Positions 39,743-56,163 of a stretch of 64,000 bases of DNA are shown here, piece by piece. How positions within the stretch are numbered: position 1 is the first letter of the stretch; every line of letters starts with the position of its first letter. The DNA is from Endomicrobiaceae bacterium. GTDB lineage: Bacteria; Elusimicrobiota; Endomicrobiia; Endomicrobiales; Endomicrobiaceae. The position numbers and the translations under genes were made by a program. The stretch is taken from positions 270-64,269 of the forward strand of contig JAQTSO010000003.1 in assembly GCA_028711215.1 (NCBI GenBank). The letters run 5' to 3'. Under the pieces are notes generated by a model. It had not been told where the DNA came from, made no database searches, and was given only the letters and a program-made list of their open reading frames with translations.

Positions 39743-40612
39743 ATGGAAAAATTAAGTTCAAAATTGGAAAGTGCAGATAAAGCTGTTAACAAAGCTGGTT
39801 TGCCGACGGATTATGGTGATACAAAAATTACCATTTTGCCGAGAGATCCTATATGTGTTTTTGCTTATTGGTCAATTTCCAAAGATTCAAAAGAAAAGAT
39901 TAAAAATCAATATGGTCAAAACATTTTCACAGATTCAAAATTAGTATTAAGAATTTATGATACCACGGATATAAATTTTGACGGAAACAATGCACACAGA
40001 TATTTTGATATTTTCATAACTCCAAATGCTGACAGTTGGTATATAAATGTTGGTGAGTACAATCGCAGTTGGTGTGCTGATATCGGTTTTTTAACAAATG
40101 ACGGTAAGTTTGTTTGTATAGCAAGATCAAATAAATTAAGTATGCCAAGATACGGTGTTTCAAATGTCACAGATGAACAATGGGCAATGTTGCAAATTGA
40201 GTTTGAAAAATTGCTTAAAATATCAGGTGTTAATCAAGTAGGAATGAGTTCTTTTGATATATCACGTCTTATGAGAGAAAGATGGGAAGAAATAGTTGCC
40301 ATCTCTTTGCCAAGTTCTCATACACAAACAAGTTCATTTAGAACACATCCTAAACATTTTGCAGAGACCCAACATGATAAACAAAAGAGTTTTTGGTTAA
40401 AAGCAGATACTGAAATAGTAATTTATGGGGCAACCGAAGCAGATGCAAAATTAACAATGAATGGGCAACCTGTAAAACTGTCTGCAGATGGTTCTTTTTC
40501 TGTAAGATTTTATTTGCCAAACGGGGATCATTCATATTCCATAGAAGCAACATCAAATGACGATTCTATGAAAAAAGCAATAACGTTTGAAGTTAAAAAG
40601 AATACAAAATAA
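39743..40612 (+). CDS. DUF4912 domain protein
   Basis: Start chosen at ATG 39743 (AAGGAT box 6-12 nt upstream). LPTDYGDTKITILPRDPICVFAYWSIS is the hallmark DUF4912 N-terminal block. C-terminal beta-rich segment (LTMNGQPVKLSADGSFSVRFYLPNGDHSY). Confidence 0.8.
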   Translation: MEKLSSKLESADKAVNKAGLPTDYGDTKITILPRDPICVFAYWSISKDSKEKIKNQYGQNIFTDSKLVLRIYDTTDINFDGNNAHRYFDIFITPNADSWYINVGEYNRSWCADIGFLTNDGKFVCIARSNKLSMPRYGVSNVTDEQWAMLQIEFEKLLKISGVNQVGMSSFDISRLMRERWEEIVAISLPSSHTQTSSFRTHPKHFAETQHDKQKSFWLKADTEIVIYGATEADAKLTMNGQPVKLSADGSFSVRFYLPNGDHSYSIEATSNDDSMKKAITFEVKKNTK

Positions 40613-40629
40613 AACTATTCGGATTTTTG

Positions 40630-42213
40630 ATGAAATATAAGGGTTACTGGTGTTTACAACTTCATGCGCATTTGCCTTTCGTCCGCCATCCAAGCTTTCC
40701 GGATTTTTTAGAAGAGGATTGGTTATACGAAGCAATAAGTGAAACTTATTTGCCTCTTCTTTCAGTATTTGAAAATTTTGTTAATGACGGGATTGATTTT
40801 CGTATTACGATGACAATTACGCCTTCGCTTGCCAACATGTTGGCAGACCCGCTTTTACAATCCAGATATTATGCAAAGTTAAATAAATTAATAGAACTCA
40901 CCGAAAAAGAAATACTCAGAACTAAATCTCAACCTGAATTTAATCAAGTTGCATTAATGTATGAAAAAAATTTAAAAAATTGTAGAAGAATATGGGAAAA
41001 ATACCACGGCAATATCCTTCATGGTTTTAAAAATTTACAGGATATGGGAAAAATTGAAATAATTACCTGTTGTGCAACACACGGATTTTTGCCTTTGATG
41101 GTTAATGAAAATGCGATAAGAGCTCAAATAAGAATAGCATGTCATGATTATCAAAGACATTTTGGAAGAAAACCGAGAGGTATATGGCTTTCTGAATGTG
41201 CCTATTCCTATGGAGTAGATAAAATATTGAAAGAAGAAGGTTTAAGATTTTTCTTTTTAGAAGCACACGGGATATTATATGCATCACCAAGACCGAAATA
41301 TGGCGTTTTTGCTCCTATATATTGTCCGAGTGGAGTTGCAGTATTCAGCAGGGATATGGAAACAGCTCATCAGGTTTGGAGTGCCGATTCAGGTTATCCT
41401 GGCGATCCTGATTACAGAGAATTTTACAGGGATTTAGCTTATGATTTGGATTACGATTATATTAAGCCCTATTTACATTCTGACGGTGTAAGAAGAAATA
41501 TAGGTATCAAATACCACAGAATAACAGGTAAAGTTCCATTACATGAAAAACAGGCTTATAATCCACAGCGGGCAGATAATAAAGCAAAGATGCATGCCGA
41601 AAATTTTGTTTTTAACAGATCCAATCAAATAGATTATTTATCCGGCATTTTAGGCAGAGATCCGATAGTAGTTTCAATGTACGATGCGGAACTTTTTGGT
41701 CATTGGTGGTTTGAAGGTCCGCAATTTATAAATTATTTATTCAGAGCGATAGATAAACAAAAGACATTTGCTCCGATTACTCCTGTAGAGTATCTTGAAA
41801 AATTTAAAACAAATCAGATTTCAACACCTTCTCCCTCATCATGGGGAGACAAAGGATATTATGAAGTTTGGTTAAATCCTAAGAATGATTGGATATATAA
41901 ACATTTGAACATAATTGCAGATAGAATGGTTGAAATAGCATCTGCAAATAGAACGGCAACAGGTTTAAAATTAAGACTTCTTAATCAGGCATCAAGAGAG
42001 TTATTGCTTGCTCAGTCATCAGATTGGGCATTTATTATGACAACAGGCACGATGGTAGAATATGCCGAAAAAAGAACAAAAGAGCATATATATAATTTTA
42101 ATACGTTATATGACCAGATAAAAAATGACAGTATTGACGAAGATTTCCTTTCAAATTTAGAATATACAAATAATATATTTCCAAACATAGACTATACAGT
42201 TTATATAAAATAA
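40630..42213 (+). CDS. GH57-family 1,4-alpha-glucan branching enzyme (DUF1957 C-terminal domain type)
   Basis: GH57 conserved regions LHAHLPFV, GIWLSECAY (nucleophile Glu), MYDAELFGHWW (acid/base Asp) and AQSSDWAF. The ATG at 40630 is preferred over the TTG at 40627. Confidence 0.88.
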   Translation: MKYKGYWCLQLHAHLPFVRHPSFPDFLEEDWLYEAISETYLPLLSVFENFVNDGIDFRITMTITPSLANMLADPLLQSRYYAKLNKLIELTEKEILRTKSQPEFNQVALMYEKNLKNCRRIWEKYHGNILHGFKNLQDMGKIEIITCCATHGFLPLMVNENAIRAQIRIACHDYQRHFGRKPRGIWLSECAYSYGVDKILKEEGLRFFFLEAHGILYASPRPKYGVFAPIYCPSGVAVFSRDMETAHQVWSADSGYPGDPDYREFYRDLAYDLDYDYIKPYLHSDGVRRNIGIKYHRITGKVPLHEKQAYNPQRADNKAKMHAENFVFNRSNQIDYLSGILGRDPIVVSMYDAELFGHWWFEGPQFINYLFRAIDKQKTFAPITPVEYLEKFKTNQISTPSPSSWGDKGYYEVWLNPKNDWIYKHLNIIADRMVEIASANRTATGLKLRLLNQASRELLLAQSSDWAFIMTTGTMVEYAEKRTKEHIYNFNTLYDQIKNDSIDEDFLSNLEYTNNIFPNIDYTVYIK

Positions 42214-42929
42214 TGAATAAAGGTATTTTATACATAGTACCAACACCTATCGGTAATCTTGAAGATATTACTTTAAGGGCTATCCGTATTTTAAAAGAAT
42301 CCGATTTAATTGTCTGCGAGGATACAAGGCAAACTCTTAAGTTATTATCGCATTTACAAATATCTAAAAAACTTATCAGTTTTTATACCCAAAACCAGTT
42401 AAGAAAAATTCCACAAATAATATCAATGTTGCAACAGGGAAAAAATATTTCGCTTGTTTCAGACTGCGGAACACCGGCAATATCTGATCCGGGATATTAT
42501 CTCGTCAAAGAAGTATTAAAAAATAATATCAATGTTATATCATTGCCGGGACCATGTGCCTTAACAACGGCACTTGTCGGTTCGGGACTTCCTACGGATT
42601 CTTTCGTATTCTTGGGTTTTTTAAGAAAAAAAACCGGTAAGATGAAAAAGGAACTGGAAGAGGCAAAATCTATAAATAAAACAATAATATTTTACGAATC
42701 TCCTCACAGAATCATAAAAACAATTGGAACTTGCCAAGAAGTTTTCGGTGCTGACTGTAATATTGTTTTAGGAAGAGAACTTACAAAAAAATTTGAAGAG
42801 TATATCAGAGGTACGATTTCAGAAGTTTTAGAAAACTTAAAAAACAGGGAAATACTTGGAGAATTTGTTATAATTATATCCTGTACAGAAGATAAAGAAA
42901 CAGATGATAAAATAACATCTGAGTTTTAG
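42213..42929 (+). CDS. rsmI: 16S rRNA (cytidine1402-2'-O)-methyltransferase RsmI
   Basis: 238 aa. LYIVPTPIGNLEDITLRA and CEDTR motifs. Start overlaps the upstream stop (TAATG). Confidence 0.93.
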   Translation: MNKGILYIVPTPIGNLEDITLRAIRILKESDLIVCEDTRQTLKLLSHLQISKKLISFYTQNQLRKIPQIISMLQQGKNISLVSDCGTPAISDPGYYLVKEVLKNNINVISLPGPCALTTALVGSGLPTDSFVFLGFLRKKTGKMKKELEEAKSINKTIIFYESPHRIIKTIGTCQEVFGADCNIVLGRELTKKFEEYIRGTISEVLENLKNREILGEFVIIISCTEDKETDDKITSEF

Positions 42930-42959
42930 TAATCTTGATTTTTCAAAAAGGAGATGTCG

Positions 42960-43739
42960 ATGAAGGTTATTATTCTTGCAGGCGGATTAGGAACAAGATT
43001 ATCAGAAGAAACAAGTTTAGTGCCAAAACCTATGGTTGAAATCGGCGGCAGACCGATTTTGTGGCATATAATGAAAATCTATTCACACTACGGATTTAAT
43101 GATTTCATTATTCTTACCGGTTATAAATCCCACATTATAAAAGATTACTTCATAAATTATTACAACAGATATTCTGATATTACTGTTGATATGGCTAGAA
43201 ATTCTGTTGAAATTCATAAAACCAGACATGAACCTTGGAAAGTAACAATGCTATATACCGGTCAGGATACAATGACCGGCGGAAGAATAAAAAAAGCTCA
43301 AAGTTATATAGGCAATGAACCATTTTTGTTAACTTACGGAGACGGTGTTGCGGATGTAAATATTAAAGATTTAATTCAGTCACATAAAAAATCAAAAAAG
43401 ATTATAACAATGACGGCAGTACAGCCTTCAGGAAGATTCGGGGCTTTAGTAATAAAAAACGACAATTTAATAACTTCTTTTATGGAAAAACCGAAGGGAA
43501 ACGAAACTTGGGTAAACGGCGGTTTTTTTGTCTGTGAACCTAAAGTATTTGACTATATCAAAAACAGCGATAAAACAATTTTTGAACGTCAACCTCTTGA
43601 AGATATTGCCAAAGTTAAACAATTAAATGCCTTTAAACATAACGGTTTTTGGAAACCGATGGATACTCTCAGAGAAAAAAATGAATTAACAGATTTGTGG
43701 TATAGCGGAAAAGCTCCTTGGAATGTGTGGGATAAATAA
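42960..43739 (+). CDS. rfbF: glucose-1-phosphate cytidylyltransferase
   Basis: ILAGGLGTRL nucleotidyltransferase loop and a length and C-terminus typical of RfbF/DdhA. The ATG at 42960 has better spacing to AAAGGAG than the ATG at 42954. Confidence 0.9.
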   Translation: MKVIILAGGLGTRLSEETSLVPKPMVEIGGRPILWHIMKIYSHYGFNDFIILTGYKSHIIKDYFINYYNRYSDITVDMARNSVEIHKTRHEPWKVTMLYTGQDTMTGGRIKKAQSYIGNEPFLLTYGDGVADVNIKDLIQSHKKSKKIITMTAVQPSGRFGALVIKNDNLITSFMEKPKGNETWVNGGFFVCEPKVFDYIKNSDKTIFERQPLEDIAKVKQLNAFKHNGFWKPMDTLREKNELTDLWYSGKAPWNVWDK

Positions 43740-43741
43740 TT

Positions 43742-44803
43742 ATGTTTGAAATATATAAGAATAAAACAATTCTTGTTACAGGGCATACCGGCTTTAAAGG
43801 TTCATGGTTATGTATTTGGCTGGAATCTCTTGGTGCTAAAGTTATAGGGTACTCAATAGATATTCCTACAAAACCGTCGCTGTTTGAACTTGCAAGGCCG
43901 AAATGTATTGATGTCAGAGGTGATATAAGAGATTTTAAAAAAATAAATAATGTCATAAAAAAATATAAACCTGAAATAATATTTCATCTTGCTGCCCAGC
44001 CTCTTGTCAGAAAATCTTATATTGATACCATTGAAACTTATCAAACAAATGTAATAGGTACGGCAAATCTTTTGGAAACAATTAAAAAAAATAAATTCGT
44101 TAAAGCAGTTGTAGCAATAACAACCGACAAAGTTTATTTAAATAATGAAACATGCAAAGCCTTTTGTGAATCGGATTCTCTCGGCGGATATGACCCCTAC
44201 AGTGCATCAAAAGCCTGTTGTGAAATAGTAATCTCTTCTTACAGAAATTCTTTTTTCAATATTAATGAATACGGTAAAAAACATAACACGTTAATTGCTT
44301 CTGCAAGAGCAGGAAATGTTATCGGTGGCGGTGATTTTGCCCAAGACAGACTGATTCCCGATTTTATAAAATCAATACTTGCAAAAAAAACTTTAATTAT
44401 CAGAAATCCTAATTCTATCAGACCGTGGCAACATGTATTGGAATCATTAAGCGGATATTTAATGCTTGGTAAAAAATTATTAGAGGGTAAAAAACAATTT
44501 GCACAATGCTGGAATTTCGGACCTGAACATAATGATATTAAAACCGTTGAGCAAATAGTAAGTAAAATGTGTCAAAATTTTGATAACAAAATAAAATATA
44601 AAAAAGATACAAAAAAACAACCTCATGAAGCCTGTTATCTTAAACTTGATATAACTAAATCAAAAACAATTCTTAAATGGATTCCTAAATGGCAGGTTAA
44701 TACCTCTCTGGATAAAATTACAGATTGGATAAAACAATATCAAAAAAAACAAAACATGAAAGATGTTTGTTTAAAACAAATAAAAGAGTATATAAATGGA
44801 TGA
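43742..44803 (+). CDS. rfbG: CDP-glucose 4,6-dehydratase
   Basis: 353 aa. VTGHTGFKGSWL Rossmann loop and YSASK catalytic YxxxK. Confidence 0.9.
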   Translation: MFEIYKNKTILVTGHTGFKGSWLCIWLESLGAKVIGYSIDIPTKPSLFELARPKCIDVRGDIRDFKKINNVIKKYKPEIIFHLAAQPLVRKSYIDTIETYQTNVIGTANLLETIKKNKFVKAVVAITTDKVYLNNETCKAFCESDSLGGYDPYSASKACCEIVISSYRNSFFNINEYGKKHNTLIASARAGNVIGGGDFAQDRLIPDFIKSILAKKTLIIRNPNSIRPWQHVLESLSGYLMLGKKLLEGKKQFAQCWNFGPEHNDIKTVEQIVSKMCQNFDNKIKYKKDTKKQPHEACYLKLDITKSKTILKWIPKWQVNTSLDKITDWIKQYQKKQNMKDVCLKQIKEYING

Positions 44804-46127
44804 AAAAGAATTAGTAAGACATGATATTTTAACTAAAGTTAAGGAATATTATACGTCTGCTTTCGGTGAGAAAAAACCGTTTAGAAAGGGCAGTAAAATT
44901 CCGTACGGCGGAAGAATATTTGATGAAAAAGAATTGGTAAATCTCGTTGACAGCGCTCTTGATTTTTGGCTGACTTCAGGTAGATATTGCAAACAGTTTG
45001 AAAGAGATTTCGCTAGATTTTTAGATATACAACATTGTTTGCTGGTAAATTCCGGGTCATCTGCAAATTTGCTTGCTTTTATGGCATTAACGTCTCCGTT
45101 GCTTAAAGAAAGAGCAATTCAAAGAGGAGATGAAGTTATAACCGTTGCATGTGGCTTTCCGACTACGGTTACTCCTATTATTCAATATGGGGCGGTTCCT
45201 GTTTTTGTTGATGTTACAATCCCTCAATATAATGCCGATATTGTTCAGATCAAAAAAGCATTAAGTCCGAAAACAAAAGCAGTTATGTTGGCACATACTT
45301 TGGGAAATCCTTTTGATTTAAAACAAATTAAAGATTTCTGTAATGAAAATAATCTGTGGCTGATAGAAGATAATTGTGATGCTTTAGGTTCAAAATATAT
45401 AATTGACGGTAAAGAAAAATATACAGGGACAATCGGCGATATAGGAACATCGAGTTTTTATCCTCCTCATCATATGACTATGGGAGAAGGCGGAGCAGTT
45501 TATACAGATAATCCGTTACTTCATAAAATACTTCTTTCTCTTAGAGACTGGGGACGTGATTGTATATGTCCTTCAGGTATGGATAATTACTGCGGTCACA
45601 GATTTGACGGACAGTATGGAGATTTGCCAAAAGGTTATGACCATAAATATGTTTATTCACATTTCGGCTATAATTTCAAAGCTACCGAAATGCAGGGAGC
45701 AATAGGGCTTGCACAACTTAAAAAACTGCCGAAATTTATTGAAGAAAGAAGAAAAAATTTTGATAAATTAAAACATGGGTTATCAGGTTTACAGGATAAA
45801 TTAATATTGCCTGAAGCATGTACAGATTCAATACCAAGTTGGTTTGGTTTTTTAATAACAGTTAAATACGGTGTTGATAGAAATTCGTTAGTTCAATATT
45901 TGGAAGAAAACGGAATTCAAACCAGAATGTTATTTGCGGGTAATTTATTGAAACATCCTTGTTTTGATGATATGAGAAAAATAAATCAGGGATTTAGAAC
46001 AGTATCCGAATTAAAAAATACCGATATTGTTATGAATAATACATTTTGGATTGGCGTATATCCGGGTATGACTGATGAAAAAATTGATTATATGATTAAT
46101 TCATTTAAGGAATTTTTTAATCAATGA
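44796..46127 (+). CDS. rfbH: CDP-6-deoxy-L-threo-D-glycero-4-hexulose-3-dehydrase (E1, RfbH/DdhC)
   Basis: 443 aa DegT-fold protein. SFYPPHHMTMGEGG has His in place of the aminotransferase Lys. Cys cluster NCD...RDWGRDCICPSGMDNYC (C-x-C-x7-C) matches the E1 2Fe-2S site. Confidence 0.88.
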   Translation: MDEKELVRHDILTKVKEYYTSAFGEKKPFRKGSKIPYGGRIFDEKELVNLVDSALDFWLTSGRYCKQFERDFARFLDIQHCLLVNSGSSANLLAFMALTSPLLKERAIQRGDEVITVACGFPTTVTPIIQYGAVPVFVDVTIPQYNADIVQIKKALSPKTKAVMLAHTLGNPFDLKQIKDFCNENNLWLIEDNCDALGSKYIIDGKEKYTGTIGDIGTSSFYPPHHMTMGEGGAVYTDNPLLHKILLSLRDWGRDCICPSGMDNYCGHRFDGQYGDLPKGYDHKYVYSHFGYNFKATEMQGAIGLAQLKKLPKFIEERRKNFDKLKHGLSGLQDKLILPEACTDSIPSWFGFLITVKYGVDRNSLVQYLEENGIQTRMLFAGNLLKHPCFDDMRKINQGFRTVSELKNTDIVMNNTFWIGVYPGMTDEKIDYMINSFKEFFNQ

Positions 46128-47011
46128 AAAAGAAAATTCTTCTTACGGGCGGAAGCGGGTTTATAGGAAGAAATATACTTGAGAGCTTTTTAATTGAAAA
46201 GTATGACATCTCTCATCCGTCCAGACAAGAATTGAATTTAACTGATTATGATTGCGTTAAAAGTTATTTTAAAGATAAAACTTTTGATGTGGTTTTGCAC
46301 TCGGCAACAAAACCGGGGCACAGAAATGCAAAAGATACAAAAGATTTATTTTCTTTAAATACGGGAATGTTTGAAAATCTTATAAATCATAAAGACAGAT
46401 ATGGAAAATTTATAAATTTCGGGTCCGGTGCAATTTACGATACATCAACAAATATTACAGATTTTAAAGAAGAGAATATATTTAAAAATATCTGTCAAGA
46501 CGAACATGGTTTTTGTAAATATGTTGTGGCTAAAAAAATTGAGCAACTTGAGAATTTTATTGATTTGAATATTTTTGGGATATTCGGCAAATATGAAGAT
46601 TGGCAGATAAGATTTATTTCTAATGCAGTTTGCAAAACTTTATATGATTTGCCGATAACTTTAAGGCAAAATCGCAGATTCAGTTATTTGTTTGTTGACG
46701 ATTTAATGCCTGTTTTGGAATTTTTTATAGAAAATGATGTTAAATACAAAAGTTATAATATTGTTCCTGATGAAAAAATTGAATTGTTGGAAATTGCTGA
46801 ACTTGTTAAAAAAATATCAAACAAAAATATTGAAATCAAAGTTGCAAAAGACGGATATGGTTTGGATTATACAGGCAATAACAGTAGATTAAAAACTGAA
46901 TTTACTGACGTTAATTTTACTGATGTTACAAAATCAATATCATCGTTATATGAATATTATAAAAACAATATCAGTAAAATAGACAGAAGCTTACTTTTGG
47001 AGGATAAATAA
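46124..47011 (+). CDS. NAD(P)-dependent sugar epimerase/reductase (extended SDR)
   Basis: 295 aa. LTGGSGFIGRN Rossmann loop and YVVAK (YxxxK). Start overlaps the rfbH stop (ATGA). It could be a 4-ketoreductase of paratose/abequose-synthase or YerF type, but this is not resolvable by eye. Confidence 0.75.
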   Translation: MKKKILLTGGSGFIGRNILESFLIEKYDISHPSRQELNLTDYDCVKSYFKDKTFDVVLHSATKPGHRNAKDTKDLFSLNTGMFENLINHKDRYGKFINFGSGAIYDTSTNITDFKEENIFKNICQDEHGFCKYVVAKKIEQLENFIDLNIFGIFGKYEDWQIRFISNAVCKTLYDLPITLRQNRRFSYLFVDDLMPVLEFFIENDVKYKSYNIVPDEKIELLEIAELVKKISNKNIEIKVAKDGYGLDYTGNNSRLKTEFTDVNFTDVTKSISSLYEYYKNNISKIDRSLLLEDK

Positions 47012-47829
47012 TGAATAATTTAGAAAAAAATATGGTTAAAACTTTAATTGATTTAAAGGAAAACCATAATGTTATAGGCGTTAAGGCTGAATTTGAAGCC
47101 GAAGGCACAAGAATGGAAGAAGCTCTGCGGTTAAAAGAAGTTGTAACCAGAGCAGGACTTGATTTAACAATAAAAATCGGCGGTTGTGAAGCATTAAAGG
47201 ATATGTATGATGCTAGGACTATTGGGGTTAGTACAATAGTTGCACCGATGATAGAATCTCCTTATGCTATGTCAAAATATATACAATCAACAAAACTTGC
47301 TTTTACTGAAGAAGAGAGAAATGAAATGAAATTTTTAATTAATATAGAGACATTTTTAGGCTTTAATAATTTAGAGTCAATTTTAGAAAATTCTTTTGCA
47401 AAAGATTTGTCTGGAATCGTTTTTGGCAGAACAGATATGACAGGTTCAATAGGGATGACTAAGGATGATATTAATCATGAGAAAATTTTTGAATATGCCT
47501 ATCAGATTGCTCAAAAAACTCTGATGCATAAAAAAGAACTTATAGTCGGTGGTGGGGTTTCAGCCCAATCATTGCCGTTTTTTAGAAAATTACCGAAAGG
47601 ATCTTTAACCAGATTTGAGACCAGGAAAATAATTTTTGATGCTCAAAAAGTATTGGCTTCTGAAAATCCTGAAAATGGTATTTTAAAAGCAGTTGGCTTT
47701 GAATTAATGTGGATTAAAAATAAACGCAATTTTTATGGGGTAATATATAGAGAAGATGAAAACAGAATTTCTGTTTTAGAGTCAAGATATAAAGATTCAA
47801 TATATAAAGCTGGAGGAAGTATTGAATAG
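47011..47829 (+). CDS. HpcH/HpaI-like (class II pyruvate aldolase / citrate-lyase beta fold) TIM-barrel protein
   Basis: 272 aa. Block pattern EAEG, IVAPMIESPYAMSKY and FLINIET...GIVFGRTDMTGSIG parallels the DGEH, LVPMV and VQIET...GVFIGPADLS blocks of HpaI-type aldolases. Confidence 0.55.
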   Translation: MNNLEKNMVKTLIDLKENHNVIGVKAEFEAEGTRMEEALRLKEVVTRAGLDLTIKIGGCEALKDMYDARTIGVSTIVAPMIESPYAMSKYIQSTKLAFTEEERNEMKFLINIETFLGFNNLESILENSFAKDLSGIVFGRTDMTGSIGMTKDDINHEKIFEYAYQIAQKTLMHKKELIVGGGVSAQSLPFFRKLPKGSLTRFETRKIIFDAQKVLASENPENGILKAVGFELMWIKNKRNFYGVIYREDENRISVLESRYKDSIYKAGGSIE

Positions 47830-48583
47830 TTTTTTAAATAATGTCAAGTGCGTTATTTTTGATTTAGACGGTACTATTTATTTCGGAACCGAATTGGCTG
47901 AAAAAGCCGACGAAGTCATAATGAAAGTCAGAAAAGAAGTTGAAAATATTTTTTTTGTAACAAATAATTCTGCGAAATCAAGATTCCAAATATATGAAAA
48001 ATTATTGAATCTGAATATTAATGTTAATTTTAATGAAGTTATAAATTCAGGATATTTAATAGCAAAATATCTTTATGAAAATAGCTATAAAGATGTATAT
48101 TGCTTGGGTACTGATAGTTTGTCAAAAGAAATAGAAGATATGGGAGTAAATTCAAAATCAAATAATCCGCAGGCAATAGTGCTTGGTTATGATATAAATT
48201 TTAAAATAACACAGTTAGAACATATCTTAAAAATATTTCAAAAAAACTGCAAAATTATTGTGGCTAATAAAGAAAGAGTGTATCCTAGACATAATGGTAT
48301 ACTTACGCCTGGAACCGGAGCGATTGCGGCTGCTTTAGAATATACATTAAATAAAAGTACAGATATAGTAATAGGAAAACCAAGTCCTTTAATGTTGGAT
48401 TTAATTGTAAAAAATATAAATATTTTACCAAATGAAATTATGATGATAGGAGATAGTTACGAAAGCGACGTTATAATGGCTGAAAAATTTGGGGCAAAAG
48501 CTGTTTTGATTTCGGAAAAAGAATTTAAAACAAATAATTTTAAAGTAATAAAAAAATTGAAAGATATATTGGAGTTATTTTAG
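47822..48583 (+). CDS. HAD-superfamily hydrolase, subfamily IIA (NagD-like)
   Basis: 253 aa. TTG start 5 nt after GGAGG. Motif I VIFDLDGTIY, TNNS motif II and GDSYESD motif IV. Confidence 0.8.
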   Translation: MNSFLNNVKCVIFDLDGTIYFGTELAEKADEVIMKVRKEVENIFFVTNNSAKSRFQIYEKLLNLNINVNFNEVINSGYLIAKYLYENSYKDVYCLGTDSLSKEIEDMGVNSKSNNPQAIVLGYDINFKITQLEHILKIFQKNCKIIVANKERVYPRHNGILTPGTGAIAAALEYTLNKSTDIVIGKPSPLMLDLIVKNINILPNEIMMIGDSYESDVIMAEKFGAKAVLISEKEFKTNNFKVIKKLKDILELF

Positions 48584-48715
48584 AAAATTTGAAAATTATA
48601 ATTTATGAATGGGAAAGATGATGCCAAATATTTTAATTAGAAAGAATACAAAATTGTTTAAAAATTAAAAAATCTTATATAGAAAATGATGCTAAAAATT
48701 TGCTGGAGGAATTGA

Positions 48716-49375
48716 ATGATTAAACAATTTTATTTTATGGATAATTATATTTTTGATTTAGATGGAACTTTAGTTGATTCGTCTTCAGAGATTTTACAAT
48801 GTCTTCAACAGGCACTGAACCAAAATTTTGTTGCGTATGACAAATCAAAGCTAAATACGGATATAATGGGCCCGTCATTAAGGGAAATTATCAAACTTGT
48901 TGTGCCGGAATTAAATGATGAAAAGATTATAAATAGTGTTGTTGCAAGATACAGGTTTTTATATGATTATAATAACAAGGATTCATCCAAATTATATGCC
49001 GGTATATTTGATTGGCTTGAATGTTTGATAAAAGAAAATAAAAAAATATTTATAGCTACAAATAAGCCTAAAGTGCCAACAATGAGATTGGTTAGTAGTT
49101 TAAATATAAATTTCTTTAATGATATTCTTACGCCTGATAAATATTCACAAGACAAGAGATTAAATAAACAAGAGATGATTGAAGATATAATAATAAAACA
49201 CAAACTTTGCAAAGAAAAAACAGTTATGATTGGAGATGTTTTAAGTGATATTAATTCGGCACATAGTGCAGGTATAAAAGTAGTAGGGGCTCTTTGGGGT
49301 TACGCCAAAGATATTAATTCGCTAAAAGAAACTGCAGATTTCGTATTAGATAAACCGACAGGAATAATACAATGA
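48716..49375 (+). CDS. HAD-superfamily hydrolase, subfamily IA (phosphoglycolate-phosphatase-like)
   Basis: 219 aa. GGAGGA box upstream. Motif I IFDLDGTLVDS, motif II ATNK and motif IV IGDVLSD. Confidence 0.8.
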   Translation: MIKQFYFMDNYIFDLDGTLVDSSSEILQCLQQALNQNFVAYDKSKLNTDIMGPSLREIIKLVVPELNDEKIINSVVARYRFLYDYNNKDSSKLYAGIFDWLECLIKENKKIFIATNKPKVPTMRLVSSLNINFFNDILTPDKYSQDKRLNKQEMIEDIIIKHKLCKEKTVMIGDVLSDINSAHSAGIKVVGALWGYAKDINSLKETADFVLDKPTGIIQ

Positions 49376-51153
49376 TTAAGATTTCTGATTATATTGCCAA
49401 AAGGCTTAAAGAAGTTTATAAAATTAAACATTTTTTTATTGTTTCAGGTGGCGGAGCTATGCACCTTAATGATAGTTTGGGTAAATATATATCTTATATT
49501 TGTAATCATAATGAACAAGCTAGTGCTATTGCTGCGGAAGGATATGCCAGATTTAACCAACAATTGGCAGTTGTAAATGTTACGACTGGTCCCGGCGGGC
49601 TTAATTGTTTAAACGGTGTATTCGGACAGTGGACAGACTCTGTCCCTGTATTGTATATCTCAGGTCAGGTAAAATATTCAACAACGATTGCTTCATGTAA
49701 AAATATTGCCTTAAGACAATTAGGTGATCAGGAAGTTGATATTATCAGTGTTGTAAAACCATTAACAAAATATGCTGTTATGATAACAAATCCAAACGAG
49801 ATAAAATATCATTTGGATAAGGCAATATATAAAGCAATGCATGGTAGATTTGGACCAGTTTGGATTGATATTCCTATGAATGTTCAATCTGCAATGATTG
49901 ATGAATCTAAACTTAAGAAATATGATTTTAAAGAAGATAAATTAGAGTTACCGAATATAGATAAACAAATTAATAAATTGAAAAATCTTTTTAAAAAATC
50001 TAAATATCCTTTAATTATTGCAGGTCATGGAATCAGACTTTCAAATGCGAAAAATGATTTTTTAAACTTAGTAAACAAATTGAATATACCTGTGCTAACA
50101 ACTGTTAACGGTTTTGATATAATCCCTAAAGATAATTCTAATTTTATGGCTAGAATAGGAACAGTTGGTAACAGAGCCGGTAACTTTATACTTCAAAATT
50201 CTGATTTAATTATTTCAATAGGTTCAAGGAATAATATCAGGCAGATAAGTTATAATTGGGAAAATTTCGCTAAAAATGCAAAGTTAATAATAGTTGATAT
50301 AGATAAAAATGAACTTCAAAAACCAACACTCAAACCGTATTTGAAAATTCATGCGGACGCTAAAGATTTTATCAAAAAATTTACAAATAAAGTAAACAAG
50401 AAAGATTTTTCAAGCTGGAATAATTTTTGTAATGCCATGAAAAACAAATACTTTCCGATGTCTGAAACAAAAATATTAAAACATAAACCTATAGAGCCGT
50501 ATTATTTTATTAACGAAATGACAAAATGTTTTAAAGATGATGAAATTGTCATAGGAGGCAATGGGTCGGCTTTTTTGTTGCCTTTTCAAGTGGGAGAAGT
50601 TAAAAGGAATCAAAGATATATATGGAATTCAGGAAATGCTTCAATGGGATATGATTTGCCGGCTTCAATAGGAGCATGTATAGCCAATAAGAAAAAAAGA
50701 GTTGTTTGTTTGGCTGGAGACGGTTCTATTATGATGAATTTGCAGGAACTGCAAACTATAAAAAGTTACAATATGCCGGTTAAAATATTTGTATTGAATA
50801 ATAACGGATATATTTCCATACAACAAACACAAAATAATTTTTTTAACGGAAGATTAACAGCATGTTCAATAAAAAGCGGAGTGACGTTGCCTGACTTTAT
50901 AAAAATAGGCAAAGCTTTTAATTTAAAAACAGTACGAATAAATACAGTTAAACGCATGAAAGAACAAATCAAACGTGTGTTAGAATATAACGGACCTATT
51001 TTATGTGAAGTGTTTTTAAACCACGACTATATATTTACTCCTAAATTATCTGCAAAAAAACTTCCTGACGGAACAATGATTTCGCCAAGTTTGGAAGATA
51101 TGTTTCCGTTTTTAGACAGGAAAGAATTTGAGGAAAATATAATAAAACGATGA
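49372..51153 (+). CDS. thiamine-diphosphate-dependent enzyme of the acetolactate synthase/YerE family
   Basis: 593 aa, three-domain ALS-like length. Catalytic Glu context HNEQASAIAAEGYAR and ThDP/Mg motif GDG-x24-NN (GDGSIMMNLQ...VLNNNG). Embedded in the sugar operon. Confidence 0.85.
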   Translation: MIKISDYIAKRLKEVYKIKHFFIVSGGGAMHLNDSLGKYISYICNHNEQASAIAAEGYARFNQQLAVVNVTTGPGGLNCLNGVFGQWTDSVPVLYISGQVKYSTTIASCKNIALRQLGDQEVDIISVVKPLTKYAVMITNPNEIKYHLDKAIYKAMHGRFGPVWIDIPMNVQSAMIDESKLKKYDFKEDKLELPNIDKQINKLKNLFKKSKYPLIIAGHGIRLSNAKNDFLNLVNKLNIPVLTTVNGFDIIPKDNSNFMARIGTVGNRAGNFILQNSDLIISIGSRNNIRQISYNWENFAKNAKLIIVDIDKNELQKPTLKPYLKIHADAKDFIKKFTNKVNKKDFSSWNNFCNAMKNKYFPMSETKILKHKPIEPYYFINEMTKCFKDDEIVIGGNGSAFLLPFQVGEVKRNQRYIWNSGNASMGYDLPASIGACIANKKKRVVCLAGDGSIMMNLQELQTIKSYNMPVKIFVLNNNGYISIQQTQNNFFNGRLTACSIKSGVTLPDFIKIGKAFNLKTVRINTVKRMKEQIKRVLEYNGPILCEVFLNHDYIFTPKLSAKKLPDGTMISPSLEDMFPFLDRKEFEENIIKR

Positions 51154-52016
51154 GCGGATGTATTATTTGTGATCATAAATATTTAACGAAGATAAAAGCT
51201 TATTTTGTTCCTTTTTTAGTTGAGAGGATGTTTGATGGACAAAATTTTTCAACAGATCTAGTTCATTGTAAATGTTGTGGAGTCTATTACTCAAGTTATA
51301 GACCTACATTAGAACAAATGGAAAAACTATATATTGGATATAGAAATGATGTTTATCAACAACAAAGATTTAAATTTGAAAAAGAGTATACAGAAGAATT
51401 TAATTATTTCTTGGGACATAATATAAATGAATTGAATATGCGGAAACATAATTTGTTTGATATTTTTAAAAACAATATTGATATTTCAAAAATTAGGAGT
51501 GTGCTTGATTTTGGAGGTGATAGAGGACAATTTATTCCAGACCAATTAACTAATATAAATAAATATGTTTATGAAATTTCTGATGTTAATACAGTTAATG
51601 GTGTTAAAAAAATTTCAAAAGAGGCGGAGTTGTTAAAATATAAATATGATTTGATCATGTGTTGTCATGTATTGGAACACGTTTCATATCCGATGGAAAT
51701 AATAAACAAATTAATAAACTTGATGAAAAAAGGAAATTATTTATATATAGAAGTTCCATATGAAGATTATTGGTTACCAAAAACAATAAAAATTTGGATA
51801 AAAGAACAAATAAAAAAACAATTAATATTTTTGGGATTAAATTATCCTTTGCAACCAATTCCGATTCACGAACATATGAATATGTTTAGAAAACAAACTT
51901 TTAAAAAAATATTTAAAAGTAAAAAGTTTAATATTATTTATCTGCAATTAAATGAAGATAAAAATATTTCTGGAGTAAAAAAAACTATAAGATGTTTAGT
52001 CCAAAAATTGTTTTGA
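51150..52016 (+). CDS. class I SAM-dependent methyltransferase with N-terminal Cys4 zinc-ribbon-like segment
   Basis: 288 aa. CIIC...CKCC pairs, SAM motif I VLDFGGDRG, and a post-I/II pattern (LIMCCHVLEHV...LMKKGNYLYIEVP). Confidence 0.8.
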   Translation: MSGCIICDHKYLTKIKAYFVPFLVERMFDGQNFSTDLVHCKCCGVYYSSYRPTLEQMEKLYIGYRNDVYQQQRFKFEKEYTEEFNYFLGHNINELNMRKHNLFDIFKNNIDISKIRSVLDFGGDRGQFIPDQLTNINKYVYEISDVNTVNGVKKISKEAELLKYKYDLIMCCHVLEHVSYPMEIINKLINLMKKGNYLYIEVPYEDYWLPKTIKIWIKEQIKKQLIFLGLNYPLQPIPIHEHMNMFRKQTFKKIFKSKKFNIIYLQLNEDKNISGVKKTIRCLVQKLF

Positions 52017-52102
52017 TTACATACGACGGTATCGTTTGAATGTAAATAAATGAAATTTTCTATAAAAACAGTGGTATTTATTAGGAGTAATGTATAAAAC
52101 CT

Positions 52103-53158
52103 ATGAATCTTATAAATAGTCTTCAAGTTTTCTTAATAACATATAACAGAAAAAAATATCTGCAAAGAACTTTTGACCAGATTTTTGCAGATAATTCTCC
52201 AATAAAAGAGTTAGATATAACAATTCTTAATAATAAATCTGATGACGGGACATCTGAACTTATTGAACAATACAGACAAAAATTCCCAAATATAAAACAT
52301 ATAATTCATAATCATAATATAGGCGGCAATGCAAATATTGTCAGAGCTTTTGAGTACGCAATTAAAGAATATGTATGGGTATTATGTGATGATGATATCT
52401 ATGATTGGACTAATTGGAAAGAAGTTGAAAGTGCAATTTATAGGCAAGAAGACATTATTTGTGTTTCAAAGTATGCTATTGATGATGATGTAAGTATAGA
52501 ATCTCAAATTTTACAATTAACTTTTGTACCGGCCGGTATATTTAAAACATCAACACTAAACAAAGGTATAATTAGAAGCATGTATGATCAGATTTATGCT
52601 TTTTTTCCACACTTGGTGCCGACCATTTTTACAATAAATAATAAAAATAGAATTTGTGTGTTGGATAGGGCAGTAGTTTATAACGGGATGGAATTAAAAA
52701 ATACTGATTGTAGTTATACAAGAGGCTCAAATTTAGAATGTTTGTCAGACAGAACAAAAGCAATGTCGTGGATAGTTGCATATGCAAATTTATGTTCAAT
52801 GATAAAAGATATAAAGCTGAAACATAAGGCTATATATAAAGCAATAAAATATATACACGGAAATTTTCGGCAATTTAGCAAAGATATGGTATATTTGTAT
52901 TTAGACGAGCAGAATTGGATGCATTTTTGGGATATATATTGGCAATTAGATACAAAAAACAGATTTAAATTATTAACTTTTTTTATTTTTAAAATGCTTT
53001 TTAGTATGCATGCGGCACATAATAATTTTTTTATTATAAGAATTTTTGGCATTAAAGTTAAATTTAAAAAAAATGAAGATGACAATTTTAAGATAATAAA
53101 TTGTTTCGGCATAAAAATAAAGAAAAATAAAAAAAGTGGTAAAATTTTTTTACAATAG
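52103..53158 (+). CDS. glycosyltransferase family 2
   Basis: 351 aa. LITYNRKKYL start, NNKSDDGT and DxD-type LCDDD motifs. Confidence 0.8.
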   Translation: MNLINSLQVFLITYNRKKYLQRTFDQIFADNSPIKELDITILNNKSDDGTSELIEQYRQKFPNIKHIIHNHNIGGNANIVRAFEYAIKEYVWVLCDDDIYDWTNWKEVESAIYRQEDIICVSKYAIDDDVSIESQILQLTFVPAGIFKTSTLNKGIIRSMYDQIYAFFPHLVPTIFTINNKNRICVLDRAVVYNGMELKNTDCSYTRGSNLECLSDRTKAMSWIVAYANLCSMIKDIKLKHKAIYKAIKYIHGNFRQFSKDMVYLYLDEQNWMHFWDIYWQLDTKNRFKLLTFFIFKMLFSMHAAHNNFFIIRIFGIKVKFKKNEDDNFKIINCFGIKIKKNKKSGKIFLQ

Positions 53159-53162
53159 GAAA

Positions 53163-54194
53163 ATGATGAATATGCCCTTATTATCAATTTGTATACCAAC
53201 TTACAATAGATCTGAGAGCCTGCTTCAAACTGTGGAATCGATTATTAATAGTGATGGATTTGATGAGAAAGTTGAAATTGTAATATCAGATAATTGTTCA
53301 ACTGATGATACGGAACAAATATGCAGAGATTATACGAATAAATATAATAATGTAAAATATTACAGGCAATTAAAACCTACGAATATAGCAGATGAAAATT
53401 TTATAGATGCCTTATCTTTTGCTACTGGAAAATATATAAAACTTAATAATGACACAGCTCCTTTTAAAGCTAATACACTTCAATTTTTTTTGAACAAAAT
53501 TCAAGAGTCTTTAGCAGACGGACGGCAATTGCTGTTTATTGCTGATATTCATCATAAGAAATTTATTAGCAGGGAAAAATTTTACAATAAAAAAATTAAA
53601 GCATATCTGACTGAAAATCTTGATGATTTTATTGATATTGTTTCTACAAGTGTTACATGGATTACAAATTTTGGCTGTTGGAAAGAACAATTTACAGCTA
53701 TTGTCGATAAAAAAAGGTTTATAAAGGCTTCTTTTATGCAGGTTGATTGGACATTGAAATTAAGAACGGAAATAAATAGTACAAGTATTTATATAGATGA
53801 TTTTTATGATACCATAAATGTCAGAAAAACCAATAAGGTTGATTTTGTTAGAGTTCATTGTAATCGCTATCTTTCAATATATAAATTTTATCTTGAACAA
53901 AAATTGATAAAAAAAGAAACTTTTGAAAGAGAGAAGAAAAGAACTTTGTTTAATGTTATACTGCCGATAACGACAGCTGCTAAAGTTTCAAAGAACGATT
54001 TTTATTCGTTTGAAGGTTTCTTTTGCAGTTTAAAAGAGGAATATAGAGACAATTTATATTTTTATTATGCGATTTATGTGCTGCTCCCATGTTATATTGT
54101 ATATTGGACTTTAAGACGTGTTTTAAGAAAGATGATACAAAAAATTTCCTATGTGTTATACTTGAAGATAGCAAAAACTGTAAATGGAAAATAA
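53163..54194 (+). CDS. glycosyltransferase family 2
   Basis: Start at ATG 53163 (AGGA upstream) gives MMNMPLLSICIPTYNRSESL. SDNCSTDDT motif present. The longer track ORF (53136) would overlap the upstream gene. Confidence 0.8.
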   Translation: MMNMPLLSICIPTYNRSESLLQTVESIINSDGFDEKVEIVISDNCSTDDTEQICRDYTNKYNNVKYYRQLKPTNIADENFIDALSFATGKYIKLNNDTAPFKANTLQFFLNKIQESLADGRQLLFIADIHHKKFISREKFYNKKIKAYLTENLDDFIDIVSTSVTWITNFGCWKEQFTAIVDKKRFIKASFMQVDWTLKLRTEINSTSIYIDDFYDTINVRKTNKVDFVRVHCNRYLSIYKFYLEQKLIKKETFEREKKRTLFNVILPITTAAKVSKNDFYSFEGFFCSLKEEYRDNLYFYYAIYVLLPCYIVYWTLRRVLRKMIQKISYVLYLKIAKTVNGK

Positions 54195-55170
54195 AATGCA
54201 AGTTTCAATAATAATAGTCAATTATAAAACGAAAGAGTTAGCAAAAGATGCGATACAATCTGTGTTTGATAAGACAGAAGGTATTAATTATGAAATTATT
54301 GTAATAGATAATAATTCAAAAGACGGTTCTGTTGAATATTTAAAAAATCAATTCAAAGATAAAATAGAAGTTATAGATGCCGGTAAGAATCTTGGTTTTG
54401 GAGGAGGAAATAATATCGGAATCAGAAAAGCAAAAGGCAAATATATATTTTTATTAAATCCTGATACAAAACTGATAAACAATGCAATTAAAATACTTTA
54501 TGATTATATGGAACAAAATGAAGATGTTGGAGCATGTTGTGGAAATTTGTATGATGAAAATATGAATCCTGTTTTATCTTTTTCAATGAGAAAGTCAACG
54601 ATCTTTTCGTATTTATATACAAAATATTCACACATTATTTCCAAAATTGGAACTTTAAATAAAAACAAACTTTATAATTACTTTAATTACGGAGATAAGA
54701 TAAAAGATGTTGGATATGTTTCCGGTGCTGATATGTTTATAAGGAAATCGGTTCTTGACAAGTCGGGTTTATTTGACGAAGACATATTTATGTACGGAGA
54801 TGACATTGATTTAAGTTACAGAATTAGTAAATCAGGTTTTAAACTGAAATCAATCCCACAGGCAAAAATTATACATTTAGAGAGTAAATCAACAAAAAAT
54901 TTTCAGGAAAAATTTAAAAAAAGTTTGAACGGCGAATACAGATTTTATTTTAATGCGTATGGATATAAAACAATAGTTTTTTTTATTGAAATGCAGTTGT
55001 TTAATATAATAAAATTAGTTGTGTGCTGTGTTTTACCAAAAAAAATATTAAAAAAAATATTTCATAATGCTTATACATTTAATGATTACATAGAAATGAT
55101 TAAAAATAATTCTGATGAATATGCTAATGCAAAAAAACAATATATGCAAAATTTGAAAAATAAAAAATGA
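54184..55170 (+). CDS. glycosyltransferase family 2 (rhamnosyltransferase-like)
   Basis: 328 aa. VSIIIVNYKT, IDNNSKDGS, NLGFGGGNN and SGADMFIRK motifs. An alternative start at 54196 is equally possible. Confidence 0.82.
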   Translation: MENKMQVSIIIVNYKTKELAKDAIQSVFDKTEGINYEIIVIDNNSKDGSVEYLKNQFKDKIEVIDAGKNLGFGGGNNIGIRKAKGKYIFLLNPDTKLINNAIKILYDYMEQNEDVGACCGNLYDENMNPVLSFSMRKSTIFSYLYTKYSHIISKIGTLNKNKLYNYFNYGDKIKDVGYVSGADMFIRKSVLDKSGLFDEDIFMYGDDIDLSYRISKSGFKLKSIPQAKIIHLESKSTKNFQEKFKKSLNGEYRFYFNAYGYKTIVFFIEMQLFNIIKLVVCCVLPKKILKKIFHNAYTFNDYIEMIKNNSDEYANAKKQYMQNLKNKK

Positions 55171-56105
55171 AAATTTCAATAGCTTTATGCACCTATAACG
55201 GAGCAGAATATCTTGCGGAACAGCTAAAAAGTTTAACAGAACAAACTTTAAAGGCTGATGAAGTTATTATTTGCGATGATAATTCTTCAGATAATACAGT
55301 TAATATTATTAATGAATACAAAGATAAACTCAATATAAAACTGAATATAAACGAAGCAAATCTCGGAGTGACAAAAAATTTTGAACAGGCAATATCTTTA
55401 TGTAGCGGAGATATCATATTTTTATGTGATCAGGATGATGGATGGCATAAAGACAAAATCAAAATAATGGCAGAGAAAATGCAGGATGAAAAAATAGGTT
55501 TGTGTTATTGCAACGGGATAGTTGCGGATGTAAATCTTAAACAAATAGAGGATTATACTTTATGGAATACATCAGGTCTTTCAAAAGTCAATTTAAATGA
55601 ATTCAATTCTTATAATCTTGTAAATAATTGTTATTTTACCGGTATGGCATTATGTTTTAGAAAAAACTTAAAAAAATATTTTTTGCCTCTAAGCAAAAAT
55701 GCGGTTCATGATGAATGGATTGCTTTTATAATTTCCTATATATCAAAAATTGCCTTTGTGGAAGAGAATCTTGTCATTTACAGACAACATTCAAAACAGC
55801 ATATAGGTATTAATTCAATAAAATCCTCAAAAGATATATGGAGATTTTTGCGTGCTTGTAAAATATCAAACATAGAAAAAGAAGTCGGCAGATTTACAGA
55901 TTTAACCGCTAAAATGAAAGAACTTAACGCCGAAAAAGAACTGATAACAAAACTTGAAAAAAAATTAAAACATTTAAAATGCCGTGCTTCAAGAAGTGTA
56001 TTCAGATTTGCAATTTTAATTTCGGAGTTGGTTTGCGGTAAATATAAAAAACATTCAAACGGCGGATATAAAGCCTTTGTAAAAGATTTATTTGCCGGGA
56101 AGTAA
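55167..56105 (+). CDS. glycosyltransferase family 2
   Basis: 312 aa. ISIALCTYNGAEYL, CDDNSSDNT and CDQDD motifs. Start overlaps the upstream stop (ATGA). Confidence 0.82.
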   Translation: MKISIALCTYNGAEYLAEQLKSLTEQTLKADEVIICDDNSSDNTVNIINEYKDKLNIKLNINEANLGVTKNFEQAISLCSGDIIFLCDQDDGWHKDKIKIMAEKMQDEKIGLCYCNGIVADVNLKQIEDYTLWNTSGLSKVNLNEFNSYNLVNNCYFTGMALCFRKNLKKYFLPLSKNAVHDEWIAFIISYISKIAFVEENLVIYRQHSKQHIGINSIKSSKDIWRFLRACKISNIEKEVGRFTDLTAKMKELNAEKELITKLEKKLKHLKCRASRSVFRFAILISELVCGKYKKHSNGGYKAFVKDLFAGK

Positions 56106-56163
56106 GATATTATATTCTAATTTTGTATAATAAAGTATAAATTTATTTCTCAGGTGTTCAAAA

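Follow-up and report, generated by a model that had tools for sequence, protein, structure and literature searches.

Which sugar do the products of nine consecutive genes at 42954-52016 of the window, a 64,000-nucleotide stretch of DNA from an Endomicrobiaceae bacterium (contig JAQTSO010000003.1), assemble? The cluster joins genes for a CDP-4-keto-3,6-dideoxyhexose to a short-chain dehydrogenase/reductase (SDR), an HpcH-type aldolase, two HAD phosphatases, a thiamine diphosphate (ThDP) enzyme and a methyltransferase (MT), and it runs on into glycosyltransferase and exporter genes. An earlier interpretation made from the letters alone, the sequence-only reading, had proposed a YerE-type branched dideoxyhexose as the product. 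This is still the best reading, because the ThDP enzyme is YerE-type and is genetically coupled to CDP-4-keto-3,6-dideoxyhexose genes in most related loci. In its fuller form, 42954-57888 is probably a single glycan operon whose first nine genes make a CDP-3,6-dideoxyhexose with a long hydroxyalkyl branch at C4, by a scheme like those of erwiniose and caryophyllose.

A frame for such a pathway exists. A scheme that unites the acyl-branched sugars erwiniose, caryophyllose and gastriose was put forward, and in part demonstrated, by Steitz et al. 2022 (PMC9306805). In the first step, an aldolase (MMAR_2331 for caryophyllose, ErwI or MygI for the others) converts pyruvate and an aldehyde into an extended 4-hydroxy-2-keto acid; in the second, a YerE-like ThDP enzyme (ErwE, MMAR_2332, MyGE) joins the keto acid to CDP-4-keto-3,6-dideoxyglucose; in the third, a YerF-like reductase acts. 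ErwE was shown experimentally to refuse pyruvate and to require the aldol product, and mutants without MMAR_2331 (aldolase/citrate-lyase family), MMAR_2332 (ThDP) or MMAR_2333 do not incorporate caryophyllose (PMC9306805). The four functions of this scheme, namely keto-sugar genes, aldolase, YerE-like ThDP enzyme and a candidate reductase, are all present at 42954-51153.

The likeness extends to the composition of the clusters. In the caryophyllose system of Mycobacterium marinum and in the putative Rhodopseudomonas palustris cluster, the same logic combines a CDP-4-keto-3,6-dideoxyhexose module, an aldolase/citrate-lyase (HpcH) aldolase, a ThDP enzyme and an NAD(P)H reductase; that scheme has no phosphatase, whereas the window, which derives from an Elusimicrobiota metagenome-assembled genome (MAG), has two and is without a clustered E3, the reductase partner of RfbH. 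Erwiniose synthesis in Pectobacterium atrosepticum (ErwI/ErwJ, ErwE, ErwF) likewise proceeds through an aldolase, ThDP ligation and then reduction, but ErwI is of the BphI/DmpG (HMGL-like) type with an acetaldehyde dehydrogenase partner, in contrast to the HpcH-type aldolase and HADs of the window. The yersiniose A pathway of Yersinia pseudotuberculosis (YerE/YerF) shares presumably the same acceptor, the FAD-type middle domain and the reductase as next step; YerE, however, takes pyruvate for a C2 branch, and the pathway has no aldolase, phosphatase or methyltransferase. The sequence-only reading found no known counterpart for the aldolase, the HADs and the MT. This stands for the HADs and falls for the other two, as the published scheme has the aldolase and the putative R. 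palustris CGA009 cluster includes an S-adenosylmethionine (SAM) methyltransferase (PMC9306805). Its suggestion of an undescribed product or donor likewise holds in part: the exact structure is likely to be undescribed, but not the logic of the pathway. The novelty lies in the phosphatase step and, probably, in the exact sugar, and the advance made by the window is incremental because the logic was in print (PMC9306805).

Keto-sugar genes and the ThDP carboligase

The cluster opens on the + strand with rfbF/ddhA (42954-43739), encoding the glucose-1-phosphate cytidylyltransferase that makes CDP-glucose (TIGR02623 equivalog, 398 bits against a cut-off of 300). It is followed on the same strand by rfbG/ddhB (43742-44803), a CDP-glucose 4,6-dehydratase (TIGR02622, 490 bits against 278) with GxxGxxG and YSASK motifs, and by rfbH/ddhC/ascC (44796-46127), the pyridoxamine phosphate- and [2Fe-2S]-dependent CDP-4-keto-6-deoxyglucose 3-dehydrase, or E1 (NF011936, 708 bits against 423). 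RfbH displays the E1 Fe-S signature, Cys194-x61-Cys256-x-Cys258-x7-Cys266, and carries His224/His225 at the site of the Schiff-base, pyridoxal phosphate-binding Lys of aminotransferases. The diagnostic motifs reported for all three proteins are thus borne out by passed equivalog cut-offs and, in RfbH, by the Fe-S/His signature. With an electron donor encoded outside the cluster, these three enzymes would convert glucose-1-phosphate to CDP-4-keto-3,6-dideoxyglucose.

The acceptor so formed would be met by the 593-residue ThDP protein (49372-51153, + strand), which consists of the three ThDP domains (PF02776, PF00205, PF02775) with an FAD-type middle domain. It carries HNEQASAIAAEGYAR and the Mg-ThDP motif GDG-x24-NN, and an HNEQ stretch with the cofactor-activating Glu is visible in the alignment; the acetolactate synthase-family signatures noted earlier are therefore present. 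A search of PDB places 8rph first (381 bits), aligned over residues 2-590 with the C-terminal tail included. According to the literature, 8rph is JanthE, a YerE-like ketone-accepting carboligase from Janthinobacterium sp. HH01; it is the closest solved and characterised relative, alignable from end to end, and has a CDG motif at the position of GDG. The second match is 5ahk (240 bits), presumably the Pseudomonas protegens YerE (PpYerE), for which the literature confirms that a structure exists. True acetohydroxyacid synthases (AHASs) reach 225 bits at most.

One rival explanation makes this protein an acetolactate synthase, be it biosynthetic or catabolic, or some other ThDP enzyme outside sugar synthesis, placed beside rfbFGH by chance. 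Its top NCBIfam match by E-value is indeed TIGR00118, the AHAS large subunit, and its pairwise identity to Escherichia coli IlvB (30%) is near that to PpYerE (29%). The TIGR00118 score of 360 bits lies far under the cut-off of 538, however, as do the scores for all NCBIfam AHAS models under theirs, and a search for ilvN, ilvC and alsD near the gene found none, in keeping with the earlier remark that ilvN and ilvC partners are absent. In a neighbour-joining tree (579 trimmed columns, 200 bootstraps, rooted on PoxB) of the ThDP protein, 20 homologues from related loci, JanthE, PpYerE, E. coli IlvB and IlvI, Arabidopsis AHAS, Gcl and PoxB, the ThDP protein, its homologues and JanthE form one clade in 200/200 replicates, with JanthE sister to the rest. 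The clade widens to include PpYerE in 194/200, while PpYerE joins the AHASs in 1/200; YpYerE, ErwE, MMAR_2332 and MyGE were not members of this tree. Together with the linkage to rfb genes across phyla described below, the separation from the AHASs makes a chance neighbour very improbable, and AHAS identity itself is rejected on the sub-cut-off scores and the tree. A YerE-type rather than acetolactate synthase assignment, as the sequence-only reading had expected, is well supported by the low AHAS scores, the precedence of JanthE and PpYerE over the AHASs, and the tree grouping. On this assignment, the ThDP enzyme would ligate a decarboxylated 2-keto acid to C4 of CDP-4-keto-3,6-dideoxyhexose.

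A phosphonate route through phosphoenolpyruvate (PEP) mutase and phosphonopyruvate decarboxylase was also considered, because a PEP/pyruvate fold and a ThDP enzyme occur together. It is rejected on account of the full three-domain AHAS/YerE architecture of the ThDP protein and of the fold matches of its partner, which are aldolases and not PEP mutase.

The coupling to sugar genes was followed in species-representative genomes, in which at least 577 stretches encode a relative of the ThDP protein; the best 80 were retrieved (45-73% identity). Linkage was counted in those 56 loci whose ThDP gene has 7 kb or more of upstream sequence, and neighbouring modules were tallied in 82 loci, whose open reading frames (ORFs) were clustered and their representatives scanned against Pfam. 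At least one of rfbF, rfbG and rfbH lies within 10 kb of the ThDP gene in 48/56 loci (86%), and all three in 38/56. Recurrence of the set apart from CDP-hexose genes, which would have pointed to a separate pathway, is thus not the rule, and the proposed coupling is upheld.

Between rfbH and the aldolase gene lies an extended SDR of 295 residues (46124-47011, + strand; PF01370), with GGSGFIG and YVVAK motifs. In most loci this gene directly follows rfbH, and in minimal RfbFGH-SDR-ThDP clusters, which occur in L003, L049 and L058 with ThDP proteins 54-70% identical to that of the window, it is (in L049 and L003) the sole extra SDR between rfbH and the ThDP gene. From this position, a role as YerF-like reductase of the branch carbonyl is inferred. 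As a rival, the SDR might be the 4-reductase of CDP-4-keto-3,6-dideoxyhexose, yielding a paratose-, abequose- or ascarylose-type sugar, with the aldolase, HAD, ThDP enzyme and MT forming a separate pathway to a non-sugar acyloin or keto-acid substituent. Adjacency to rfbH is compatible with such a role, since rfbS and rfbJ likewise adjoin rfbH; the SDR is likened to YerF by position, and in 8/56 loci the ThDP gene is found with no rfb gene within 10 kb. Yet an 86% co-location of the ThDP gene with rfbFGH would be puzzling if their products had no substrate in common, the minimal clusters would have no rationale, and the sole characterised relatives within the ThDP clade are ketone-accepting carboligases. 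The SDR itself falls under every NCBIfam cut-off (the top model, GDP-L-fucose synthase, gives 45 bits against 500). The 4-reductase explanation is hence improbable, and a branched sugar reduced after ligation remains the preferred reading.

The aldolase, the phosphatases and the branch

What would distinguish the branch from that of yersiniose is the enzyme at 47011-47829 (+ strand), a divergent member of the HpcH/HpaI-type class II (metal-dependent) pyruvate aldolases, with a weak match to PF03328 (33.4 bits against a gathering threshold of 25). The single sequence finds no meaningful match in PDB, and a family profile is needed; the profile of 25 members matches HpaI, YfaU and GarL weakly and over one short segment only. 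Within this segment, two invariant residues, E113 and D142, fall on the 'vE' and 'GpaDL' positions of HpaI, YfaU and GarL, and a PMxE motif is shared. We take the aligned segment to hold the metal-binding residues, the Glu and Asp ligands of HpaI being E149 and D175. An AlphaFold2 model built with database homologues has a mean predicted local distance difference test score of 93.3, and its top Foldseek matches are SbnG, HpaI, YfaU, SwHKA and GarL (probability 1.0, template modelling (TM) scores 0.53-0.58). The weak profile match and the Foldseek matches at TM about 0.55 together assign the product as a divergent class II pyruvate aldolase-like enzyme by profile and predicted fold. Its family gives more than 7,400 database hits; where their source names are informative, they read 'aldolase/citrate lyase family protein' or, in two cases, '4-hydroxy-2-oxoheptanedioate aldolase'. 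Such an enzyme would build the extended 2-keto acid donor by condensing pyruvate with an aldehyde to a 4-hydroxy-2-keto acid.

The alternative is a plain yersiniose-type pathway, in which the ThDP enzyme adds a C2 acetyl branch from pyruvate, the SDR reduces it, and the aldolase and HADs serve a separate substituent or salvage. The minimal clusters, which do without an aldolase, are consistent with this view, and JanthE accepts pyruvate besides longer donors (PMC12247030). However, the aldolase gene is translationally coupled between the SDR and ThDP genes and recurs there in 41/82 loci; loci without it often have other candidate genes for donor synthesis at that position; and ErwE, the precedent with a clustered aldolase, refuses pyruvate (PMC9306805). 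A simple C2 branch is accordingly considered unlikely, and the long branch built from an aldol product is preferred.

Directly downstream, the gene at 47822-48583 (+ strand, TTG start) encodes a HAD-IIA phosphatase of the NagD/pNPPase/phosphoglycolate-PLP phosphatase type (TIGR01460, 123 bits against 100; DLDGT and GDSYESD). A second, accessory phosphatase, HAD-IA and Gph-like, lies at 48716-49375 (+ strand; PF13419, 105 bits; DLDGT and GDVLSD), with GGAGG 6 nt upstream of its ATG (48716). Both have intact catalytic motifs, including the motif I nucleophile and the motif IV acidic pair, and their PDB neighbours place them closest to small-metabolite phosphomonoesterases. The HpcH-HAD-IIA-ThDP arrangement is kept in ten further loci (L086, L087, L088, L004, L007, L009, L010, L011, L019 and L045), and the same three genes are found by tblastn in L014. 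In L026, L028, L030, L034 and L057, HAD-IA takes the place of HAD-IIA in the HpcH-ThDP slot. Both HADs stand together only in the window, with no co-occurrence in the other loci examined. Relative to the syntenic locus L086, the DNA is colinear up to 48594 and resumes at 49368 across the ThDP gene (blastn); the intervening 773 bp (48595-49367, + strand) are an insertion that carries only the HAD-IA gene and its ribosome-binding site. Sequential action of the two HADs is rejected on account of their use of the same slot in different loci, their failure to co-occur elsewhere and the clean 773-bp insertion of HAD-IA. Owing to the shared slot and this lack of co-occurrence, the two are read as analogues and the window as a mosaic that holds both; HAD-IA is probably redundant with HAD-IIA. 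Depending on the locus, HADs stand beside HpcH, NeuB-like or HMGL-like enzymes. HAD-IIA is part of the conserved core of this sub-family and would dephosphorylate the aldehyde or keto-acid donor. No mention of a phosphatase in the context of acyl-branched sugars was found in the relevant papers searched.

The order of events on the donor side can be outlined by analogy. In the routes to Kdo, Neu5Ac-9-P and KDN-9-P, a phosphorylated aldehyde is extended by a C-C-forming enzyme to a 3-deoxy-2-keto acid, whose terminal phosphate a dedicated HAD (KdsC, NANP) then removes. These routes employ PEP-dependent synthases and CMP-sugar activation, whereas the window has a pyruvate aldolase fold and a ThDP ligase to consume the acid. 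In the preferred order, by analogy with KdsA/KdsC and with Neu5Ac-9-P synthase and its phosphatase, HAD-IIA would remove the phosphate from the phosphorylated aldol product of a central-metabolism aldehyde phosphate such as glyceraldehyde-3-P or erythrose-4-P; alternatively, it may act on the aldehyde phosphate before the aldol step. An aldolase-first order is favoured because class II pyruvate aldolases need the alpha-keto-carboxylate of the substrate to be bound to the metal and because of the ErwE precedent. The keto acid would then be decarboxylated by the YerE-like enzyme, its acyl anion equivalent added to the C4 ketone, and the branch carbonyl reduced by the 295-residue SDR in the manner of YerF.

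Related loci and interchangeable donor modules

The ThDP protein belongs to a broad group, with more than 120 database clusters at 65-79% identity; those with a source name are Endomicrobiaceae, Gastranaerophilales, Elusimicrobiaceae and Alphaproteobacteria MAGs. The window itself matches an Endomicrobiaceae MAG at 100%. The retrieved loci come from many phyla, and their cultured carriers include Brachyspira intermedia, Pararobbsia, Rhodoblastus acidophilus and a Puniceicoccaceae isolate. L086, on a 1.8-Mb contig, has a ThDP protein 78% identical to that of the window and is syntenic with it on both sides; its cluster reads RfbF-G-H-SDR-HpcH-HAD-IIA-ThDP, followed by three GT2 genes and an ABC exporter. 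HAD-IA, the MT and two GT2 genes of the window are additions relative to L086. In L087 and L088 (79% identical), the same core is followed by two SDRs in place of the MT.

Around this core, the genes adjoining the ThDP gene vary. Besides the HpcH aldolase (41/82 loci), NeuB-like synthases and dehydroquinate synthase (DHQS)-like enzymes each occur in 20/82, FabG-like SDRs, usually paired with a DHQS-like enzyme, in 21/82, FGGY kinases in 6/82 and HMGL/BphI-type aldolases of the ErwI type in 5/82, the last in sister loci such as those of Victivallaceae and Brachyspira. In about 20 loci, the NeuB-like synthases, which we take to be PEP-dependent, and/or the DHQS-like and FabG-like pair, sometimes with an FGGY kinase, replace the HpcH aldolase or sit beside it (L018, L021, L024, L029, L031-L033, L041, L047, L050, L073, L074, L078, L080, L084 and others). 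These NeuB-like and DHQS/FabG-like modules lie outside the published scheme and may be other routes to the donor. Tailoring genes vary as well and include acyltransferase_3, radical SAM/SPASM, FkbM and class I methyltransferases, pyruvyl transferases and GtrA.

Identity of the ThDP protein is 54-79% between genomes of Elusimicrobiota, Gastranaerophilales (Cyanobacteriota), Alphaproteobacteria, Spirochaetes and Verrucomicrobia (window against L006-L059), and the aldolase is similarly conserved. This conservation across distant phyla suggests that the cluster has spread horizontally, mostly among gut-, rumen- and termite-associated bacteria. A more specific proposal can be drawn from these observations, and it is offered tentatively, since we would sooner expect some part of it to fail than the whole to hold. 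In it, the HpcH-HAD-ThDP core uses a phosphorylated aldehyde of central metabolism (such as glyceraldehyde-3-P or erythrose-4-P) to form a polyhydroxylated keto acid and from this an undescribed higher-carbon 4-C-branched 3,6-dideoxyhexose, O-methylated in the present case, on the Endomicrobiaceae surface. The locus would belong to a large, unrecognised and horizontally spread family in at least 10 phyla, carried for the most part by uncultured bacteria, which frequently live in gut, rumen or termite, with at least four interchangeable donor modules (HpcH, HMGL, NeuB-like and DHQS/FabG/FGGY), the last two beyond the published scheme.

Several observations weigh against the proposed pathway. 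E3 (AscD/RfbI/DdhD) was found neither in the window, by a motif regex over all ORFs, nor in the surveyed loci; in a Pfam scan of candidate ORFs, the sole FNR-type protein nearby is PyrK-like, and the accessory families of the 82 loci contain no E3, the small conserved ORFs after rfbH elsewhere being GtrA and ParE, not ferredoxins. With E3 missing from the cluster, RfbH would have to draw its electrons from a reductase or ferredoxin encoded elsewhere. The 8 loci without a nearby rfb gene also count here. For the SDR, C4 ketoreductase or epimerase activity is an alternative. Structural matches of the aldolase to HpcH/HpaI enzymes reach a TM of only about 0.55, and its N-terminal half is unaligned in sequence. 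No equivalent is mapped for Arg70, the catalytic Arg of HpaI; the invariant K25, K55 and R140 are candidates. In 14 loci, an HpcH aldolase is the only donor-module gene of the surveyed region, without a HAD, and the aldolase of one of these, L008, is 76% identical to that of the window; the phosphatase must therefore be dispensable in those genomes or supplied from elsewhere in them. The window enzymes are likened to YpYerE, ErwE, MMAR_2331, MMAR_2332 and YerF by description and not by sequence, which makes orthology indirect. JanthE, the nearest characterised relative of the ThDP protein, is only about 35% identical to it, and the physiological substrates of JanthE have not been identified (PMC12188165).

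The carriers of these clusters are mostly anaerobic, and the electron donor to their RfbH must be a general ferredoxin, flavodoxin or reductase.

The interest of the family lies in the sugars it may represent. Caryophyllose, erwiniose and gastriose are rare long acyl-branched sugars. The glycolipids and lipopolysaccharides that carry such sugars affect host interaction, and the sugars themselves are very hard to detect chemically, but it has been argued that they can be predicted from sequence (PMC9306805). To judge from the present locus and its relatives, uncultured bacteria appear to use this chemistry commonly, many of them from gut, rumen or termite, with Elusimicrobiota, Gastranaerophilales, Alphaproteobacteria, Victivallaceae, Brachyspira and Verrucomicrobia as suggested carriers. 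The donor chemistry appears more varied than described, extending to phosphatases, NeuB-like synthases and DHQS-like enzymes. The clade may also serve biocatalysis as a source of many new, presumably ketone-accepting ThDP carboligases along with putative donor-making aldolases. The breadth and modularity of the cluster family in uncultured bacteria are the most interesting by-product of the analysis.

Operon layout, glycan assembly and flanking genes

The nine ORFs are co-directional on the + strand and tightly packed. Overlaps join rfbG to rfbH (8 nt), rfbH to the SDR gene (4 nt), the SDR to the HpcH gene (1 nt), HpcH to HAD-IIA (8 nt), HAD-IA to the ThDP gene (4 nt) and the ThDP gene to the MT gene (4 nt); the sole real gap among the nine is 48584-48715 (132 nt). 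The sequence-only coordinates, overlaps and gap are all reproduced. Upstream, the housekeeping rRNA methyltransferase gene rsmI occupies 42213-42929, and the cluster therefore begins at 42954. Downstream, the co-directional run passes 52016 and extends to 57888 with four GT2 genes and a PglK-like ABC exporter. A promoter and terminator scan is uninformative, its counts equalling the shuffle expectation in DNA of 30% GC.

The ninth gene (51150-52016, + strand) encodes an accessory class I SAM methyltransferase (Methyltransf_23; PF13489, 52 bits) with an N-terminal Cys4 motif (CxxC...CxCC) and the SAM motif VLDFGGDRG; it has no matches in PDB. It would methylate a hydroxyl of the sugar or glycan. 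The MT is absent from L086, while L092 keeps it, overlapping the ThDP gene as in the window, and matches the synteny of the window further downstream; a homologue lies in the HpcH-FabG-DHQS-HAD-acyltransferase_3-ThDP cluster of L094. That widespread cluster (L094:1-9179; the MT cluster has 34 member sequences) also has a cytidylyltransferase of CTP_transf_3, the Pfam family associated with CMP-Kdo/CMP-NeuAc synthetases, which hints that some variants may also activate the keto acid directly. A further MT homologue, 57% identical, is encoded at L093:8001-11116 on a contig of phage-like look, full of small unannotated ORFs, where a GT8/GT2 fusion and a Stealth-domain protein come directly after it; a phage may here carry a module for glycan modification.

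The four GT2 glycosyltransferases (PF00535, + strand) lie at 52103-53158, 53136-54194, 54184-55170 and 55167-56105. The first and the third have no counterpart in L086 and, like the MT and HAD-IA, are accessory additions. The cluster ends with a PglK-like fused ABC exporter (56164-57888, + strand), a putative lipid-linked oligosaccharide flippase (PglK NCBIfam 380 bits against a cut-off of 1000; MsbA 264) that is 87% identical to its L086 counterpart. The GT2 enzymes would build a lipid-linked oligosaccharide, and the PglK-like protein would flip it across the membrane.

Further upstream, the PyrK-like FAD/NAD/[2Fe-2S] protein is encoded at 34578-35360 (217 bits against a cut-off of 219), and its gene overlaps the start of that for a 509-residue PMT_2 (GT-C) glycosyltransferase (35353-36882), an unusual pairing. 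The PMT_2 enzyme could be a periplasmic-side transferase for the flipped glycan. The flanks at 39659-42213 and 60608-62797 encode a DUF4912 protein, a GH57 branching enzyme and a second GH57 protein (729 residues). The same DUF4912/GH57 flanks occur in L086 and L092, and they form a conserved glycogen-metabolism neighbourhood outside the sugar pathway.

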